Assembly: GCA_019310525.1 (NCBI GenBank)
Contig: JAFDEE010000004.1
Coordinates: forward strand, 8,828-72,827
Reading direction: 5' to 3'
Length of the DNA stretch: 64,000 bases
From: Deltaproteobacteria bacterium
GTDB lineage: Bacteria > Desulfobacterota > DSM-4660 > Desulfatiglandales > HGW-15
Part shown: positions 23,378 to 30,641 of the stretch, piece by piece
How positions within the stretch are numbered: position 1 is the first letter of the stretch
Layout of the letters: the number at the start of each line of letters is the position of its first letter
Position numbers and translations under genes: made by a program
The notes under the pieces: generated by a model
Database searches by the model: none
What the model was told of the DNA's origin: nothing
Seen by the model: the letters and a program-made list of their open reading frames with translations, nothing else

Positions 23378-23470
23378 GCCAATTCCTCCCCTTGAGACTG
23401 AAATGACATGCAACCCCCTTTCGGAAGGTGATGGGCGGAGTCATCCGGATCCGGACAGGATGGTGTCTTA

Positions 23471-23550
23471 GCAGGCTGTTGAAAAACTACTGTACTTTCT
23501 TGCCAACGTTTGCCTTGCCTCAGCTGCGCGCGCTACGTTTTTCAACACCC
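23471..23550. repeat. REP-like palindromic element, copy B1 (GGCTGTTGAAAAACTACTG ... GTTTTTCAAC)
   Basis: 10-bp stem GTTGAAAAAC/GTTTTTCAAC. The first ~30 nt are nearly identical to the reverse complement of 24386-24434. Confidence 0.5.
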
Positions 23551-23692
23551 TGTTAGAGCAAAGAGGAACCGGCACGGGATGAAAGAGATCAAGCGTCATC
23601 GGACCTATGCCATCATACAGGGGTGTTGGGCCTGTGGCAAGCACCGGGAGAGTTTAGGGACCCGGCCTTTGTGGAAACCTTTGCGGAGGTCT

Positions 23693-24034
23693 TCAAAAAA
23701 AACGTTCCAGCCACTCCTGAAAAGAGAGATACTTTCCAGTGTGGTAGTCATAGCAAGGTTCGAGAGGGTTCCTGGCGCCTTCATCTCCCATTTCCTCTGT
23801 CCACCGGGACAGGACATCCCTCAACTCTTCCCCGGGAATTCCGAACTGCCGTGCCAGGGTCTTGGTTCCATGGACGTTCCTGTAAACGGCCGCCATCTGC
23901 CACAGCGCCTTGCGGCGCAGTTCCTCGATCTGATCATCGGGCAGGCCGTGCCGGGAAGCCAGATGGGCCGCCCGGGCATAGTGCCCGGCTTCGATCAAGG
24001 TCCTCAGCTCCTCGTTTTCTATCTTCCCCTCCAT
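23693..24034 (-). CDS. hypothetical small helical protein
   Basis: 113-aa ORF (MEGKIENEELRTLIEAGHYARAAHL...) with coding-like composition and no recognisable motif. Confidence 0.5.
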   Translation of the reverse strand: MEGKIENEELRTLIEAGHYARAAHLASRHGLPDDQIEELRRKALWQMAAVYRNVHGTKTLARQFGIPGEELRDVLSRWTEEMGDEGARNPLEPCYDYHTGKYLSFQEWLERFF

Positions 24035-24385
24035 TGTCCTTTCGCCGTGTTCCTCCCTGAATCTTGCTTGTTTGGCAAACTCAACGCTTGCAAGATTCAG
24101 GTCCTATGATCACCCATTTCCGCCCGTAAATTGGGTTCTTCTTCCCTCGACCTGTATCCGGTCGCAGGCACGAAAAAGGGCCCCTCCGGGGCGCTTCTTT
24201 TCTCGCTTTCCGCCTATTTTTTGGGCGGAAAAGTTTGGAAATTGCAGATGAATTACATATAACACGTTGATATTTTAGGACAATTTACAACATACAGTGA
24301 TAATCATTCAAAGGGGATTGTCAAGGTTCCCGCCCTTTTTTCCTGGCCTGGCCGCTCTTGACAATTCCCGAAAAAGCATTACCAA

Positions 24386-24434
24386 GTTGTTGAAAAATGC
24401 AGCGAGTGCAGTAGTTTTTCAACAGCCTGGCAAG
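24386..24434. repeat. REP-like palindromic element, copy B2 (inverted relative to B1)
   Basis: GTTGAAAAATGCAGCGAGTGCAGTAGTTTTTCAACAGCC. Its reverse complement matches the B1 5' end at about 27 of 30 positions. Confidence 0.5.
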
Positions 24435-24568
24435 TCTTTTTCAGGGCCGATGACCATGCCTCCGGCGACGACAGGACGGCCCGCTTGCGGGCCGTCCTGT
24501 CGGGTGAAGTATCCGGAAAACGGCTCCTCTTTTTGTGTCTGGATTTTCGGAAAAAAGGAAGAAGCCTG

Positions 24569-25501
24569 ATGGAAAGAGCATTGTTTTTGGAGAAATATTC
24601 AATCCGGCCCGAGGAATTCGAAAGGGCGGGCTTGAGCTGGGAAGAGCTCCTTGCAATCAGAGACGACCACCGTCGGAATCAGGATCGCCTGGAGGCGGCC
24701 GCCAGGTACGTATCGGACCGTTTGGGCACGGTCGAGGAGGTTCACAGCATCAAGACCCGGATCAAGGATCCGGAGCACCTTATAGAGAAAATCATCAGAA
24801 AGAGGTTGGAAGACCCAACCCTTGTCCTGGATCGTGAGACCTACCGGTTCGTCATCACCGACCTGGCCGGGGTAAGAGCCCTCCATCTTTTCAAGGAGGA
24901 CTGGGAAAAAATCCACGAATTCATCATCCACACATGGGAACTGCGAAGAAATCCCGTCGCCAACGTCTGCGAAGACGACCATGACCGTTTCGTAAAGCGC
25001 TTCAAGGAAAGGGGATGCGAGATACACAAGCATCCCTTCGGTTATCGTTCCGTTCATTACCTGGTTTCCTTCGCACCTTCCAAGGTGGAATTCACCACGG
25101 TTGAAATCCAGGTCCGCACCATCCTGGAGGAGGCGTGGAGTGAGATCGATCACATGATCCGCTATCCTTACCGGGCGGATAAAACAGCCCTCTCACCGTA
25201 TCTCGTCTTCCTCAACCGGCTCCTGGGGAACGCCGATGAAATGGGTTCCTTCATCAAGCTGCTCAATGACAACATCAGCGGTAAGTCCAGGGATCGCTAT
25301 ACCCGTGATTGGAAGAACAGGAGCCCGATCCATTACCTGAAAAGAGACGTGGACGGTCTCCCCGTTGAGATGAATATCAAGCGTTTGCTCCAGGAAAGGA
25401 TCCAGTCCCTTGAAAAACATCTCCTCTCCCTCAAAACCATGCCCTCCTATGACAGTGTGACCGAGGCCTTTTCTTCTCCCCACACCGGGACCCCATCGTG
25501 A
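24569..25501 (+). CDS. RelA/SpoT-domain protein (small alarmone synthetase-like nucleotide pyrophosphokinase) with a C-terminal extension
   Basis: The start was moved to ATG 24569 (MERALF, RBS AAGGAAG). Synthetase motifs: KTRIKDPEHLIEKIIRK, ITDLAGVRAL, GYRSVHYLV and VEIQVRTILEEAWSEIDH. Confidence 0.8.
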   Translation: MERALFLEKYSIRPEEFERAGLSWEELLAIRDDHRRNQDRLEAAARYVSDRLGTVEEVHSIKTRIKDPEHLIEKIIRKRLEDPTLVLDRETYRFVITDLAGVRALHLFKEDWEKIHEFIIHTWELRRNPVANVCEDDHDRFVKRFKERGCEIHKHPFGYRSVHYLVSFAPSKVEFTTVEIQVRTILEEAWSEIDHMIRYPYRADKTALSPYLVFLNRLLGNADEMGSFIKLLNDNISGKSRDRYTRDWKNRSPIHYLKRDVDGLPVEMNIKRLLQERIQSLEKHLLSLKTMPSYDSVTEAFSSPHTGTPS

Positions 25502-25561
25502 TTCCTCCCGGTTGACGAAAGGGGACCAGGAACCTGCGGGAAAAAGGAGGACGGGTCCCCC

Positions 25562-25589
25562 TTGACAAACCGAAAATCCAGATTATTCA
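25562..25589 (+). promoter_or_regulatory. possible sigma70 promoter (TTGACA-16-TATTCA) for the Hsp20 gene, implying a ~185-nt leader
   Basis: Hexamers read directly. Confidence 0.3.
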
Positions 25590-25779
25590 TTTTAAAAACA
25601 GTGAGATAGAACGGGATCGGAAAGGGATTGAAATCCAGGGCCTCAGTCGGGTTCCTGCAGCAATCTTCGATAAGGGAAAGGCATATCGTCCCGCCTGTGG
25701 GTCATGACCCAAAGGCGCCCCCCTCTTTTTCTTGATCTTTTCAGGCTCTGGAAACCCAAGACAATGAGGAGGTGAAATC

Positions 25780-26514
25780 ATGGCCGTATCCGAAAAAGCA
25801 AAAGAGAAACTCGATGAGGCGAGCAGGGAAATCAAGGAGGCTATAGACAATCTCAAGCAGGAGGTTGTGGAACTCTCCTCAAAGGTCAAGGAAAAGCTCA
25901 AAGGAACCGGAGAGGAGATGCGGGTGGGCGTGGAAGAGCTCACCCGGGAAGTGAAAGCCCTCTCAGAGAGAGTCAAGGATCTGATTCCGAAAAGGAGAAG
26001 AAGTGGCCAGGTTCCAGTGAGGGTTCAGAGGACCCCGGGATTTTATCCAGGCACCTGGGAGCAGCCTTTCCTGGAACTTCGAAGAGCGACGGATCGCCTT
26101 TTCGATGAATTCTATCGAACTTTTCAGTGGCCCATGGGTCGCTGGAGAGGCCCTCTGGGATGGCCGGGGGAAATCCTCCAGCCGGATTGGCCCCGGGTGG
26201 ATGTTATCGAGGATGATGAAGAAATTCGAATCACCGCGGAGCTGCCCGGGGTGGAAAGGGACGACCTGGAAGTCTTGCTTAGCGAAGGACGGATTATCAT
26301 CCGGGGGGAAAAAGGGGGGCAGGAAGAACAAAAGCACCGGGACTATTATCAGATAGAAAGATATTATGGCGCCTTTTCAAGGAGCATTCCACTTCCCTGT
26401 GAGGTCGATTCCGAGAAAGTGGAAGCGACCTTCAGGGACGGGGTGCTAACCATCCTGCTTCCCAAGAGGGAAGACGCTCGAAGGCGCACGAGGATTACCG
26501 TCAGGGCGGCCTAG
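25780..26514 (+). CDS. Hsp20/alpha-crystallin small heat-shock protein with a long N-terminal charged helical extension
   Basis: 244 aa with a strong RBS (GAGGAGG). The alpha-crystallin domain runs from about aa 137 (VDVIEDDEEIRITAELPGVERDDLEV..GVLTILLPK). Residues 1-75 are a K/E-rich heptad-like sequence. Confidence 0.85.
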   Translation: MAVSEKAKEKLDEASREIKEAIDNLKQEVVELSSKVKEKLKGTGEEMRVGVEELTREVKALSERVKDLIPKRRRSGQVPVRVQRTPGFYPGTWEQPFLELRRATDRLFDEFYRTFQWPMGRWRGPLGWPGEILQPDWPRVDVIEDDEEIRITAELPGVERDDLEVLLSEGRIIIRGEKGGQEEQKHRDYYQIERYYGAFSRSIPLPCEVDSEKVEATFRDGVLTILLPKREDARRRTRITVRAA

Positions 26515-26621
26515 CGGAAATGGAAGGAGGGGCCGCTCCCTTCCGGCCTGTAGATCCTTTCTTTGGTTGAGCAACCCGATCCGCTGGGGAAGGGGTATCA
26601 TGAAGAATAGGAGGGTGCCGA

Positions 26622-27215
26622 ATGAAAAGGCCTTTGCCGCTCTTCAGGGATGTATGCTCGGGTGAGAGAAAGGTCAATACAGCGACCCTGGAGCAGGTGG
26701 TTCTTTTGGCTGTCGAGATTGCCAGGGAAGGCCGGGAAGGGCGGAAGATCGGCACCCTTTTTGTTGTTTCCGATTCAGAGAAGGTGTTGAAACGGTCCAA
26801 GCCCCTGATTCTTGATCCCCTTAAAGGACACCCGGACGAGGTCAAGCGCATCGGTGACATAAACCTCCGGGAGACACTGAAGGAACTGGCTCAGCTGGAT
26901 GGGGCCTTTGTGGTCTCGGATGAGGGGGTCGTGATTTCTGCCTGCAGGTATATCAACGCTTCGTCGGAAGGGATCCGTCTCCCCCTGGGATTCGGCAGCC
27001 GTCACATGGCTGCGGCCTCCATCTCCAAGGAAACGGATTGCGTGTCCGTAGTGGTTTCAGAGAGTTCCATCGTTCGGGTATTTGACGACGGGGAACTCGT
27101 ATCCGAAATTATCCCGGAGATCTGGGTCATGAGCAAGTACAGTCATCACCTGAGCGGAGGCGAGATCTCGGAAAAAACGGATCGCAAGCTGATGGTCGTA
27201 AGCAAGACGGGGTGA
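26622..27215 (+). CDS. stand-alone DisA_N / diadenylate cyclase (DAC) domain protein with variant catalytic motifs
   Basis: 197 aa with RBS GGAGG. DAC-like core: GTLFVV, LDGAFVV (canonical HDGA), GSRHMAA (canonical GTRHRAA) and VVVSESS. Confidence 0.75.
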   Translation: MKRPLPLFRDVCSGERKVNTATLEQVVLLAVEIAREGREGRKIGTLFVVSDSEKVLKRSKPLILDPLKGHPDEVKRIGDINLRETLKELAQLDGAFVVSDEGVVISACRYINASSEGIRLPLGFGSRHMAAASISKETDCVSVVVSESSIVRVFDDGELVSEIIPEIWVMSKYSHHLSGGEISEKTDRKLMVVSKTG

Positions 27216-27246
27216 CCCGAGGACAAAACCGGCAATCGTCTTTCTG

Positions 27247-28488
27247 TTATCCGCTGTTTTCCCCGGCCGGCCTGCCCTCCGCCCAGCGCTTGAGCAGGTA
27301 AGGCTTGGTTTTTTCAAAGACCATGCAGTCTTCTTCAATGGCTTCTTCGGCCTGCTGGGTTGACATTCTTCGGGTCTTCTTGACGAAGGACAGGGTCCTC
27401 CCGAAGTAAAGGGGAATCAGGGCCTCCATCATGTCGTCGGGATCACACAGGGTATCCCGGTACCCTACGGCCATATCGTAAAGGATCCTCGCCCAGAGGT
27501 CCGTCGGGAAAGCGAACATTCTTTCCTTCATCCCTTTGATCTCCAGGAGTTTTTGAAAGACGTCCCTGGACAGGACTTCCTGGAGGATTTCCTTGTGTTC
27601 GTCGAAGCCCTCATGGAACCGCTCGAATAGCTTCTTGGTGTCCACTTCCACCTTGGGGGGCATGGCCACCTCACCCAGGCCGAATCCATAGATGGCCGTG
27701 GGTTTGCTGTATTTCACCCGGGTCCAGTAAGATTCGAAGTGGACCATCAGGTTGAATATGGTCCCCACTACCTGCCGGAACATGGGGCCCAGGGCCGCCG
27801 CGGGGTCCTTGGGCCTGTGAATCTTGGGCTTTCCCATGAAGGACTGGCAGACCTGGATGCCCTGGTTCAGGGCAAGAGTGGTCATCCAGATGTCGATCCC
27901 GAAATTGGCCACGGCCTCGTCCCAGATGGCACTCTCGAGGTAGACCCTGGCCAGTTCACCGCTGAACCCGAAATCGCCGCCGATGGGCTGGCGGACCCTG
28001 CGTCCGTATAGAGCCCTTGAGAGCGGGTAGGCGATGCCGTTGGTGATGGTGCCGTCATATTTATGACGAACATAGAGGGGCGCGACATAGGAAAAATCAT
28101 CGAAGAGAGGTTCGGCCAGGTGTTTGATCCATTCCGGGGTAATACTTTTGAGATCCGCGTCCACGACAACGATTGCCCGGGCTTCCAGGTCGAGCACTTT
28201 CTCGAAGAGGTTCTTGAAGTTGTTCCCCTTTCCCTTGACCCCCGGCGGCGTGGAGATGTAAATCTTGGGAACTTTGGTGGGGGTGTCCAAGAATGCCTGT
28301 TTCGTATTGTCCGGGGAGTTGTTGTCGCAATTGACGATCACGGTGGACAGATCGGGGAAGTACTTTACCAATCCCTCGCTGGCCTGAATCGTGGGATAGC
28401 TGATGGAGTCCGCCTCATTATAGGAGGGGATACTGACCACCAGCTCGGCTTTGGTGATACCTTCAGGATTGACTTCCTTTTCAAACAT
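27247..28488 (-). CDS. GT-A fold glycosyltransferase of the glucosylglycerate / glycosyl-3-phosphoglycerate synthase type
   Basis: 413 aa with VVSIPSYNEA, NCDNNSPDNT, GKGNNF and VVVDADL (DxD). It overlaps the phosphatase gene start by 8 nt. Confidence 0.65.
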   Translation of the reverse strand: MFEKEVNPEGITKAELVVSIPSYNEADSISYPTIQASEGLVKYFPDLSTVIVNCDNNSPDNTKQAFLDTPTKVPKIYISTPPGVKGKGNNFKNLFEKVLDLEARAIVVVDADLKSITPEWIKHLAEPLFDDFSYVAPLYVRHKYDGTITNGIAYPLSRALYGRRVRQPIGGDFGFSGELARVYLESAIWDEAVANFGIDIWMTTLALNQGIQVCQSFMGKPKIHRPKDPAAALGPMFRQVVGTIFNLMVHFESYWTRVKYSKPTAIYGFGLGEVAMPPKVEVDTKKLFERFHEGFDEHKEILQEVLSRDVFQKLLEIKGMKERMFAFPTDLWARILYDMAVGYRDTLCDPDDMMEALIPLYFGRTLSFVKKTRRMSTQQAEEAIEEDCMVFEKTKPYLLKRWAEGRPAGENSG

Positions 28489-29368
28489 TTTTCCTAAGAC
28501 CTCCCTTCAATTTGAGCAGAATGCCCGAAACGGCGTCGTTCCAACCCCGGGGCCCGGGCTCGGAAGTTATGCTCAATCCGGGAATATCTTCCTTGATCCC
28601 CGGAAAATCCCGGTCGGAGCGGACCAATACCGGGTAGTTTACCCGCTTTAACATGGAGAAGTCGTTTGGGCTGTCCCCGAGACCGATGGTGACAAGCCGC
28701 AAATAGGTCCTCCCGTACCAGATGATCAGTTTCCCGACGGCCTCACCCTTATCCACCTTTCCGTGGAGATGAAAGAACCGCCCCCCCTGGGTCACTTTGA
28801 GGCCCCTGGTGCCGGCGGCCTCCTGGAGGGCCGCGATGTTCCTCTCCCCTTCCAGTAGGAAGGGCTCGTCGAATTCCCTTTGCGCTGCAAGTCTGCATGT
28901 GTCCGGGTCCAGCCCGGTCAACGCAGCGATTTCCTCCGGGTCCATGTCCGAAAATCCTCGGAGGTCCCAGTTCAATTCCTCTCTGATCTCCTTTAGGGCC
29001 TTGACCAGGCTTTTATATGGAGGACCCAGGGACCATTTCCAGAACTCACCGTCCAATACAGCCTCGCCCGGAGGCCAGTTCGTTCCCCCCATCGGGAAGA
29101 AGATCCCCCCGCCGTTTTCGGAGACAAAGGGGGCAGTGAGTCCCAATGTTCTCCAGAGCCTCACCATCTCGGCCCTGGTCTTGCTCGAGACCAGGACCAC
29201 GGGAATATCGGCTTCTTTGCAGGTCTCAAGGGCCGGTGCCGCCTCCTTCCACTCGTAAGTGTCCTGATCCAGCAGCGTTCCGTCAAGATCCGTGAAAATG
29301 ATCGGGAAGAGGGCGGCCGATCGGGGGGATTCCGGGGCATCCCTCTCAGAGGAACCGCCGCTTTTCAT
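28481..29368 (-). CDS. HAD-IIB mannosyl-3-phosphoglycerate phosphatase family (MpgP/YedP-like)
   Basis: 295 aa with FTDLDGTLLD, YEW..AAPAL, VLVSSKTRAEM and GLGDSPND, which aligns well by eye with E. coli YedP. Confidence 0.8.
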   Translation of the reverse strand: MKSGGSSERDAPESPRSAALFPIIFTDLDGTLLDQDTYEWKEAAPALETCKEADIPVVLVSSKTRAEMVRLWRTLGLTAPFVSENGGGIFFPMGGTNWPPGEAVLDGEFWKWSLGPPYKSLVKALKEIREELNWDLRGFSDMDPEEIAALTGLDPDTCRLAAQREFDEPFLLEGERNIAALQEAAGTRGLKVTQGGRFFHLHGKVDKGEAVGKLIIWYGRTYLRLVTIGLGDSPNDFSMLKRVNYPVLVRSDRDFPGIKEDIPGLSITSEPGPRGWNDAVSGILLKLKGGLRKNV

Positions 29369-30641
29369 TCTCCACCACCTCGATCAGGTCGAAAAAGATC
29401 TTCGGGAGTTTGTTGGAAATCCTCTCCCAAGAAACTGTCTGGGGCATCTGAAAAAGACCTTCCAATGTCTTTCGCTCCACCGCCAGGATAGCCTCCGAGA
29501 GACCCATTTCGAGGAAGGGCTTGAATTCCTCGTGGGTATGAACCAGTCTCAGGAAGCGTTCGGTCATCTGACGGGGAGAGGTGAGAAGTTCTCCGGCATG
29601 GAGGATGGAATTGGTGAAAACTTTTTTCACCAGGTATTCCTCGGAGTCCCGATCGTAACGGAGGCTGTTGAAGCTGGCATCGTCCGAGTATTTTTTGATC
29701 TGTTCTTCGGCCACCGCATTGTAAGTGATGGCCAGGTCCCTGAAAAAGGTGTCGGAGATCTCAAGGCCCTCCTCGATCACCAGGGCGTTCATCAAAGTTG
29801 TCACGATGTCCACGGCCATTCTGTTCAGGCCCCTGTTACGGTCGCCGTCAGAGACATCCTGGTGCTTGTGATCAAAGGGTTCCTCGGAGAACATCACCTG
29901 AGCCGGGCTGGATGCCTTTCTGTAAACCTCGATCAGGGTAAAGATCTCTACACCCCAGTTGGTTGCGAAACGCATCCTTTTCAGCAAGTCCACGTGAAAG
30001 GCCACCTCGCCGGAGAGCTGATAGTGGAAACCCAGGAGAAAGTCGATGAGGCGGAGCATCTTGTCTTCCTTGGACTCCGTGAACTTCCGCTTGAGCGAGA
30101 GAAGGAGCGGATCAAGGAGGAGCCTCTTGACCCTCCCGTAAAGTTCTCCGTCCTTGAGGCGGGCGTAATACGCCTTTGAGAAATCATACCCCAGTACCAC
30201 CACGGGGTAAAAGAGCCGATCGAGTTGCACCTTTTTAAAGGTGCGGATGTCGGCATCCACAAGGCCGATGGATTCTGCACCCATGGCGATGGCGATCCCG
30301 AAACCGAGGAATATGTTCTTGCCTTTTCCGGGTTCACTGATATTGAATCCTGCCTCATTCAGTTGTTCGTAGATCCCACTGAACCCCGGTCCGTCGTTCC
30401 ATTGAATCAGGGCGTTCTTTATACCGTATTTCAGGATCAGTTCTTGAAGGGTGTGTGCCTCCCTTTCGCTGGCGCCGTCAAGCCCGAAGATCACCTGGGA
30501 TAGATAAGTGGTGGCCCGGAGTTCTTTCAGGATGTTTTCGAAAACGGGACGGTTGGCGGGGTCCATGAATTCGCTGGCCAGGGTGGGGACGATCAGAACC
30601 GTTTTCTTCCACTTGGAGCCGAGTCGAAGTTGGTTGCGCAA
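29346..30641 (-). CDS. glycosyl-3-phosphoglycerate synthase-like GT (GT55/GT81-like: MpgS/GpgS type)
   Basis: 431 aa with a TTG start. The core GKGKNIFLGFGIAIAMGAESIGLVDADI resembles the GKGEGM...VGFVDADN core of mannosyl-/glucosyl-3-phosphoglycerate synthases. Confidence 0.65.
   Translation of the reverse strand: MRNQLRLGSKWKKTVLIVPTLASEFMDPANRPVFENILKELRATTYLSQVIFGLDGASEREAHTLQELILKYGIKNALIQWNDGPGFSGIYEQLNEAGFNISEPGKGKNIFLGFGIAIAMGAESIGLVDADIRTFKKVQLDRLFYPVVVLGYDFSKAYYARLKDGELYGRVKRLLLDPLLLSLKRKFTESKEDKMLRLIDFLLGFHYQLSGEVAFHVDLLKRMRFATNWGVEIFTLIEVYRKASSPAQVMFSEEPFDHKHQDVSDGDRNRGLNRMAVDIVTTLMNALVIEEGLEISDTFFRDLAITYNAVAEEQIKKYSDDASFNSLRYDRDSEEYLVKKVFTNSILHAGELLTSPRQMTERFLRLVHTHEEFKPFLEMGLSEAILAVERKTLEGLFQMPQTVSWERISNKLPKIFFDLIEVVENEKRRFL

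Follow-up and report, generated by a model that had tools for sequence, protein, structure and literature searches.

A four-gene block with candidate (p)ppGpp and c-di-AMP synthase genes as a probable reduced heat-shock array of a Thermodesulfobacteriota clade

What are the genes for two candidate nucleotide-messenger synthases doing next to a chaperone gene, between two clusters for sugar-based solutes? The question is raised by a 64-kb stretch of DNA from a Deltaproteobacteria bacterium (contig JAFDEE010000004.1, positions 8,828 to 72,827; the whole stretch is called the window below). Four of its genes lie between a minus-strand 'mannoside' operon of GT4, GH130 and PMM (phosphomannomutase) genes, which ends at position 23413, and a minus-strand glycosyl-glycerate triad of GT2, MPGP-family phosphatase and GpgS-like genes, which starts at 27247. 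All four were confirmed by the list of open reading frames (ORFs) and by homologues: they encode a helical protein of 113 amino acids (aa), a RelA/SpoT synthetase, an Hsp20 chaperone with a long N-terminal extension, and a stand-alone protein with a diadenylate cyclase (DAC) domain. The original prediction had described this arrangement, and ORFs, Pfam matches and three assemblies agree with it; the assemblies, all from JGI, carry the window contig with an identical gene order. The public DNA runs that contain the contig are marine, hydrothermal-vent and sediment metagenomes. Judged by the taxon names of homologues, it belongs to the Thermodesulfobacteriota, within a Syntrophobacteria-like group. 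The same prediction called the four genes unrelated and proposed that they form a dedicated osmo/thermo-stress regulon. The answer we favor, with moderate confidence, is that the block is a reduced heat-shock (protein-damage stress) array typical of one thermophilic Thermodesulfobacteriota clade from hydrothermal and marine sediments.

The case for a reduced heat-shock array comes from the neighborhood of each gene in relatives (Table 1). The close clade of the synthetase, defined by 58–66% identity, comprises seven lineages other than that of the window (L084/88, L167, L169, L170/171, L179, L180 and L087). A chaperone gene was found within the fetched flanks in every one of the seven, compared with none of 78 distant relatives (Fisher p = 2e-10, window left out), and in four of them a divergent groES-groEL pair lies beside the synthetase gene. 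The close relatives of the DAC protein (75–77% identity) are near hsp20 genes in four cases out of four, and in L177 a dnaK-dnaJ-MerR-clpB cluster precedes the DAC gene as well; hsp20 was near in 6 of the 76 other species-representative DAC loci (Fisher p = 1e-4, an approximate value for which the denominator used was 78). As for the 113-aa protein, the '121-aa' gene that follows groEL in relatives encodes its homologue (E ~1e-35), and the family stands directly after groES-groEL in four further lineages (L169, L170/171, L172/173 and L174; five fetched loci). The four genes are thus not unrelated: relatives place each of them beside chaperone genes.

One strand of the fuller array, as pieced together from several relatives, carries dnaJ, the 113-aa-family gene, groEL and groES; the other carries a gene for a 71-aa protein, the synthetase gene, hsp20a, hsp20b, the extended hsp20 and the DAC gene. 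This order is regarded as clade-typical because L171 (synthetase, hsp20a, hsp20b, extended hsp20, contig end) can be joined with L175 (hsp20a, hsp20b, extended hsp20, DAC). Relative to it, the window lacks groES-groEL and hsp20a/b, and has hairpins resembling repetitive extragenic palindromic (REP) elements at the edges of the 113-aa segment. No remnants of groES, groEL or dnaJ were detected in the window by tblastn.

The control region of the missing operon seems to have been kept. DNA between the 113-aa gene and the synthetase gene aligns with the divergent groES/synthetase control region of relatives, and TTGTCAAG, ATAATCAT and the leader motif CTGATATTAT are conserved between the window and the groES-upstream regions of L167, L169, L170 and L172. 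This region includes the stretch that had been singled out as the most AT-rich DNA in this part of the window. With 45.7% GC at 24101–24400, compared with a window mean of 56.7% (standard deviation 4.1), it is indeed the GC minimum between ~12 and 32 kb, yet only the seventh lowest across the 64 kb. Because it aligns with the groES control region of relatives and the window has no groESL, the AT-rich stretch is best read as a groES-type promoter and leader whose operon was lost. Of the five CTTGACAA sites in the window, three are at promoter-like positions in the block, before the 113-aa, synthetase and hsp20 genes. L167, L169 and L170 carry the same CTTGACA element ahead of their synthetase gene, and the motif CCCCTTGACA..AAAAT..GATTAT is shared by the window with L169 and L171, where it precedes the first of the hsp20 genes.

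The hairpins invite another explanation for the same segment, namely a recent insertion or rearrangement, mediated by the REP-like repeats and acquired horizontally, that comprises the whole block or just its left part. As had been noted from the sequence at the outset, the 113-aa gene is bracketed by inverted REP-like elements: hairpins A and B flank it on both sides and have common 30-nt arms that are 90% complementary. Hairpin A is predicted to fold at -28.5 kcal/mol, its z-score being weak (-1.6); for B the values are -32 kcal/mol and -5.7. Their core, GGCTGTTGAAAAAC, occurs four times with at most two mismatches, compared with 0.4 occurrences expected, and three of the four lie inside the hairpins. 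Of four runs with public metagenome contigs, two (X2 and X6) showed a depth spike of ~6x or more over adjacent bins for the arm at 23509–23555, and three (X2, X4 and X6) joined this arm to differing flanks, which suggests a dispersed repeat. In being imperfect intergenic hairpins, of which metagenome contigs show several copies in differing flanks, the elements are like REP or miniature inverted-repeat transposable element (MITE) families; unlike these, only two copies lie within the 64-kb window, and none was found in 2.1 Mb of fetched relatives. Inverted and probably dispersed repeats around the 113-aa gene and the promoter region, the absence of groESL precisely there in comparison with relatives, and a G+C content at third codon positions (GC3) of 0.61–0.69 for the four genes, slightly under the 0.70–0.77 of flanking genes, all favor an insertion. 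However, the order and orientation of the mannoside operon, 113-aa-family gene, synthetase gene and hsp20 are those of L169, which argues for a deletion inside an inherited array. In addition, no transposase or integrase was found in the block among ORF translations or Pfam matches, and the arrangement is the same in three separate assemblies. We therefore consider an insertion very unlikely. Horizontal acquisition was also rejected on composition, GC and GC3 both being ordinary. The original prediction had asked whether the block is conserved or inserted: its members are conserved in chaperone arrays, with groESL lost from the window, but the pairing of the synthetase with the DAC gene was seen in the window only.

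A number of observations weigh against the reduced heat-shock array, and some of them favor a view in which four independent housekeeping genes were juxtaposed by chance, with no shared regulation and no meaning to their position between sugar clusters. The synthetase and DAC genes are together only in the window (the synthetase was absent from all 80 DAC loci, and the DAC gene from all 78 distant synthetase loci), and the same is true of the glycosyl-glycerate triad beside the block among the DAC and synthetase loci compared. In the wider DAC family, hsp20 was found within ~6 kb in only 8 of 80 loci, and neighbors are highly variable across phyla, no partner gene being conserved throughout. 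No CIRCE, HAIR or sigma-32 consensus came up in a fuzzy search of 14 intergenic regions drawn from the window and from relatives. Other points concern the comparison itself. The distant-relative contigs are shorter (mean 7.8 kb), so the contrast in synthetase–chaperone linkage is inflated, and the lineages are perhaps less independent than counted, since they come from metagenome contigs and several of the habitats are alike. With regard to the promoters, a G+C-rich hairpin that resembles a bidirectional terminator in a consensus scan separates the retained groES-type promoter from the 113-aa gene, the shared TTGACA element may be merely a strong housekeeping -35 box, and none of the three proposed promoters was listed by a generic sigma-70 consensus scan of the window. 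RNA runs containing the block or its hsp20 gene were sought and none was found; co-expression and heat induction are predicted from gene neighborhoods and promoter-like sequences. Against chance stand the chaperone adjacency in all close synthetase lineages and none of the distant ones, the same adjacency in all close DAC relatives, the tie of the 113-aa family to groESL, and the homology of the promoter region to that of groES. On this evidence we think that chance juxtaposition is unlikely, and it is less well supported than a reduced heat-shock array, as are the other three alternatives considered in this work.

A conserved partner of the DAC gene had at one point seemed to be present downstream in 58 loci; this candidate was discarded, since off-frame ORFs in genomes of high GC content had apparently produced the cluster, and the real neighbors differ between lineages.

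Table 1. Features of the block in the window, with gene orders and positions in related loci.
Feature	Position	Strand	Remarks
113-aa helical protein	23693–24034	-	ORF; no Pfam match
RelA/SpoT synthetase	24569–25501	+	310 aa; PF04607
Extended Hsp20	25780–26514	+	244 aa; PF00011
Stand-alone DAC protein	26622–27215	+	197 aa; PF02457
REP-like hairpin A	23467–23555		Arms 23469–23487 / 23537–23555; between the start of the GT4 gene (776 aa) and the stop of the 113-aa gene
REP-like hairpin B	24367–24445		Inverted copy of A; in predicted 5' leader of synthetase gene
G+C-rich hairpin, T-runs on both strands	24180–24192		Consensus scan, pattern match only; between minus-strand promoter and 113-aa gene
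Promoter-like site, counterpart of groES promoter	24297–24325	-	TTGACA, 16-nt spacer, TATCAC; CTTGACAA at 24318–24325
Promoter-like site, synthetase	24357–24385	+	CTTGACAA, 16-nt spacer, TACCAA
Promoter-like site, hsp20	25561–25589	+	CCCCTTGACAA, 16-nt spacer, TATTCA
Perfect palindrome, 16-nt arms	24469–24502		CGACAGGACGGCCCGC TT GCGGGCCGTCCTGTCG; arms 100% complementary; synthetase leader
Synthetase locus L084/88			hsp20, hsp20, synthetase, 43-bp gap, mannoside operon on same strand; further on ruvB, ruvA
Synthetase locus L167			dnaJ, groEL, groES divergent from synthetase; Glyco_transf_20, hsp20 and DksA/TraR-type gene near
Synthetase locus L169			Mannoside operon, 113-aa-family (121-aa) gene, groEL, groES divergent from synthetase; then three hsp20, the last of extended type
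Synthetase locus L170/171			dnaJ, 121-aa gene, groEL, groES divergent from 71-aa gene, synthetase, three hsp20
Synthetase locus L179			groEL, groES divergent from synthetase
Synthetase locus L180			Synthetase adjoining hsp20
Synthetase locus L087			71-aa gene, J-domain protein, synthetase
DAC locus L004/L005			Three hsp20, DAC, 71-aa gene; nucleotidyltransferase + CDP-alcohol phosphatidyltransferase gene; myo-inositol-1-phosphate synthase gene
DAC locus L175			hsp20a, hsp20b, extended hsp20, DAC
DAC locus L177/178			lon, dnaK, dnaJ, MerR-family gene (possibly HspR-like), clpB, sigma-factor-like gene, hsp20, 115-aa gene, DAC
DAC locus L027			776-aa GT4 and GH130 genes upstream of DAC
DAC locus L007			ruvB adjoining DAC
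71-aa protein	L170 9693–9908; L171 3373–3588; L087 26–256; L004 10592–10804; L005 5317–5529; L172 11941–12219		

The synthetase belongs, as judged from its domain and motifs, to the synthetase-only RelA/SpoT homologues of the small alarmone synthetase type. PF04607 is matched with 70.8 bits (cut-off 27) at residues 91–230 of the long ORF, 24485–25501, for which homologues favor the ATG at 24569 as the start. It is the sole domain, HD hydrolase, TGS and ACT domains being absent, and the remainder of the model is helical. The motifs RxK, DxxGxR, GYRSxH, ExQxRT and H..Y are all present and align residue for residue with Staphylococcus aureus RelP. R64, K66, D98, G101, G158-Y-R-S161, H163, E179, Q181, T184, H195 and Y199 are invariant in 21 homologues, among which R103 and R183 are nearly so. 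The AlphaFold2 model (predicted local distance difference test, pLDDT, 80) shows additional helices at the N-terminus and a coiled coil at the C-terminus. Foldseek matched it best to 6ex0, 6fgj and 2be3 (E 8e-10 to 1e-8, target-normalised TM-scores 0.57–0.67), followed by the RelQ entries 5ded and 5f2v (E 2e-8 and weaker).

The protein is thus like RelP and RelQ of Firmicutes (PDB 6ewz, 6fgj, 5ded) in being synthetase-only, in its catalytic motifs and in its best fold matches. It differs from them in a core identity of only ~20–25%, ~55 added helical residues at the N-terminus and a C-terminal coiled coil of ~100 aa, an insertion that separates the second motif from the third, and the location of its gene, which in the window type is in chaperone clusters rather than in the cell-envelope-stress regulons of relP and relQ. 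It scored only 35.1 bits against the RelQ/YjbM equivalog NF053588 (cut-off 320), and hence represents a separate subfamily and not a RelQ orthologue. There are ~3,000 homologues in many phyla. The enzyme likely makes (p)ppGpp (guanosine tetra- and pentaphosphate), although from its sequence it could also use other acceptors, ATP or the 3' end of tRNA among them.

Since the 113-aa and synthetase genes are adjacent and divergent in the window, the two could instead be a toxin-antitoxin or phage-defense pair, in which the 113-aa protein would be the antitoxin of a toxic CapRel/FaRel-type synthetase. A homologue of the latter sits directly 3' of a 45%-identical synthetase gene in L090, and PADLOC gave a weak match of the synthetase to PDC-S33 (E 2e-6). 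However, the 113-aa family follows groEL without any synthetase gene in L172/173 and L174, nearly all relatives of the synthetase lack the 113-aa gene, and the two are adjacent in just two contexts. The fold is also nearer to RelP/RelQ than to the toxic-type enzymes CapRel (E 2.7e-5) and FaRel2 (E 6e-4), and the other three proteins of the block match no defense-system model. Such a pair is therefore highly improbable, and membership in CapRel-type defense was rejected in view of the variable neighbors, the weak PADLOC match and the weaker fold matches.

The leader of the synthetase gene has two further structures. A perfect palindrome at 24469–24502 (predicted fold -34.4 kcal/mol, z-score -5.5) lies just 5' of the start of the synthetase and overlaps an alternative TTG start. 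Because no T-run follows, it does not qualify as a classical terminator, and a role as operator or leader structure is possible. At 24520–24571, the ribosome-binding site AGGAAG is predicted to pair with an upstream UCUUUUU run, with two G-U pairs included, a pairing that resembles an RNA thermometer of the fourU type. A scan of the whole 64 kb with Rfam at gathering thresholds gave no RNA family (no tRNA, rRNA or riboswitch); riboswitches for c-di-AMP or ppGpp were accordingly not detected either. At 26582, between hsp20 and the DAC gene, one public assembly has a 10-nt tandem duplication (GCTGGGGAAG), indicating that this spacer tolerates changes in length.

The DAC protein is hardly more than its domain, with PF02457 matched at 77.2 bits (cut-off 27) over residues 34–158. 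It belongs to a family of more than 7,500 homologue clusters of ~195–200 aa with identities of 58–78%. Relatives were found in at least 523 stretches of species-representative genomes and span Thermodesulfobacteriota, Rubrobacteraceae, Planctomycetota, Elusimicrobia, Dadabacteria and Deinococcota. Among NCBIfam models, DacZ (NF041371) is matched best (positions 123–268 of 270, E 1.7e-40), but at 139 bits the protein stays below the equivalog cut-off of 430, and a Pfam scan found no DacZ_N or DacZ_A sensor domain in it. D93-G94-A95, which aligns to the DGA motif of CdaA, and R127-H128 are invariant in 21 family members. In the alignment with CdaA, G-S-R-H-M (with R127-H128-M129) stands opposite G-T-R-H-R, and V-S-E-S (with S146-E147-S148) opposite V-S-E-E; both changes are family-wide.

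These changes raise the possibility that the protein is a nucleotide-binding regulator and no cyclase, because it has RHM for RHR and lacks the metal-binding glutamate of CdaA. Yet DacZ-type proteins with DacZ_A or DACZ_N sensor domains show this RH[non-R] and S-x-S pattern too, and one of them, P0344, scores 426.5 bits along the whole haloarchaeal DacZ model, making it a near-equivalog. Experiments have shown DacZ and CdaZ to be active cyclases that depend on Mn (PMC6741144), and the DGA motif is invariant. RHM and SES are consequently a trait of the clade and do not prove inactivity, and the reading of the protein as a dead cyclase was dropped. A non-cyclase role thus appears improbable, and the protein is likely a synthase of cyclic di-AMP (c-di-AMP). 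The expectation of one candidate enzyme for each messenger type was upheld: the synthetase keeps every catalytic motif and the DAC protein its DGA motif, the RHM/SES pattern being typical of the DacZ clade, and judged by these residues both enzymes look catalytically competent.

In comparison to DacZ/CdaZ of Euryarchaeota, the DAC domain of the window is nearest to the DacZ clade and shares its RH[non-R] and S-x-S pattern. The pyruvate-kinase-C-like sensor is missing, however; in its place are a short N-terminus, in which one Cys is invariant, and a conserved C-terminal tail of 35 aa with W168 and H176. Moreover, DacZ and CdaZ are euryarchaeal, whereas the window family is bacterial and present in many phyla. 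This sensor-less DacZ-type architecture is new, unless it has already been named in a classification of the DAC family. In Rubrobacteraceae/Actinomycetota (L053, L057, L068, L070 and L073), a DsbA-like thioredoxin domain is found in the same ORF as the stand-alone DAC type, N-terminal in P0241 and C-terminal in P0244. Cys12 and Cys108 are invariant in the family. Together, the fusions and the invariant Cys residues hint at redox control of the DAC family.

The extended Hsp20 matches PF00011 with 76.1 bits (cut-off 20.8), its alpha-crystallin domain covering residues 141–239. Like IbpA/IbpB of the Hsp20 family, it combines this domain with a C-terminal I-x-V motif (...R-I-T-V-R-A-A). Unlike them, it starts with ~140 aa that are rich in amphipathic helices and give weak apolipoprotein-type matches at residues 2–67, a region conserved only in close relatives: the orthologue of L169 has 272 aa and is 60% identical, and that of L175 has 245 aa and is encoded immediately 5' of the DAC gene.

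The 113-aa family is tiny, with 11 clusters among 5.8 billion proteins. The start of the window gene is backed by homologues, the JGI call for the same gene being 101 aa. The AlphaFold2 model (pLDDT 86.7) consists of five helices and a beta-hairpin, and no counterpart of the fold was found in the PDB (best E 0.98). Besides its positions after groEL and after the synthetase gene of L090, a homologue adjoins the DAC gene in L175. Genes for a protein with an NPCBM_assoc domain, an ABC transporter ATPase and an ABC-2 permease often lie 3' of the 113-aa-family gene (L172 8494–11906, L174 2943–5886, L175 8857–11796). Another small protein, the 71-aa one, has a conserved W-G-K-x-C-S-x-C-F-T motif and no Pfam match. 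It recurs in these heat-shock neighborhoods, 5' of the synthetase gene in some lineages and directly 3' of the DAC gene in others, and the window has no copy of it.

The linkage to compatible-solute genes that had been proposed for the block stands in part. The mannoside operon recurs nearby in three or four lineages (L084/L088, L169 and L027), and other protective-solute genes are near in further ones: genes of the di-myo-inositol-phosphate type in L004/L005, where the predicted domains are those of the thermophile di-myo-inositol-phosphate pathway, and Glyco_transf_20 in L167. Glyco_transf_20 is the family of trehalose-6-phosphate synthases. On the other hand, the linkage to the glycosyl-glycerate triad was seen in no other locus compared. 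In that triad (27247–30641), the GpgS-like glycosyltransferase scored 206 bits against the 700-bit cut-off of a methanogen-type glucosyl-3-phosphoglycerate synthase model, the phosphatase exceeds the MPGP-family cut-off, and the second GT2 is only weakly similar to GpgS and MGS. The three-gene layout may resemble that of the mannosylglucosylglycerate pathway of Petrotoga. The genes ruvB, ruvA, ruvC and yebC lie beyond the triad. In L084 (6947–8045) and also in L088, the synthetase gene is 43 bp 5' of the 776-aa GT4 gene on the same strand, and from this spacing it and the mannoside operon may be co-transcribed there.

A sequence of events can be proposed for the reduced heat-shock array, in which co-regulation, the inducing signal, the enzyme products and the effect on the sugar pathways are the parts that we infer. 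Heat or proteotoxic stress would turn the block on through TTGACA-type promoters common to chaperone genes. The RelP/RelQ-like synthetase would then produce (p)ppGpp, slowing translation and growth, and the sensor-less DacZ-type cyclase would raise c-di-AMP. The extended small heat-shock protein would hold unfolding proteins, with the neighboring sugar genes providing protective solutes. Of the osmo/thermo-stress role originally suggested, heat or protein damage is the half that chaperone synteny supports, for every gene; osmotic stress as the signal did not find such support. There is precedent for parts of this scheme elsewhere. (p)ppGpp belongs to the heat-shock response of Bacillus subtilis (PMC7098656, PMC10212131), osmolyte balance (potassium and compatible solutes) is under c-di-AMP control in other bacteria (PMC6108528), and c-di-AMP–Rel crosstalk occurs via DarB (PMC7900238). 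B. subtilis thereby provides a model for a rise in alarmone on heat and for linked messengers. There, however, the link is post-translational and the synthetase genes are outside chaperone operons, whereas in the window clade the link appears to be genomic, with the synthase genes within chaperone arrays.

Considered as a whole, the data raise the possibility, which we put forward tentatively and with less than even confidence, that the heat-shock regulon of this clade encodes both a dedicated (p)ppGpp synthetase and a sensor-less DacZ-type cyclase. The levels of the two messengers would then be set by transcription together with chaperones rather than through sensor domains, coupling protein damage to thermoprotective sugars and solutes (mannosides, glycosyl-glycerates, di-myo-inositol phosphate and trehalose). 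The word regulon is used here in a sense suggested by synteny and shared promoter-like sequences. The parts all come from known families; what is new is the presence of both synthase genes in chaperone arrays and the small groESL-linked family. Both messengers have mostly been studied in Firmicutes and Proteobacteria, where the enzymes are controlled by sensor domains or partner proteins. Two sensor-less synthase genes within chaperone arrays suggest a simpler form of control, in which enzyme is made only when heat-shock genes are on. If true, this would connect proteostasis with growth control and compatible-solute synthesis of thermophiles in a testable way, and would offer first leads on two protein families: a functional one for the very large and uncharacterised family of stand-alone DAC proteins, and one for the small family tied to groESL.

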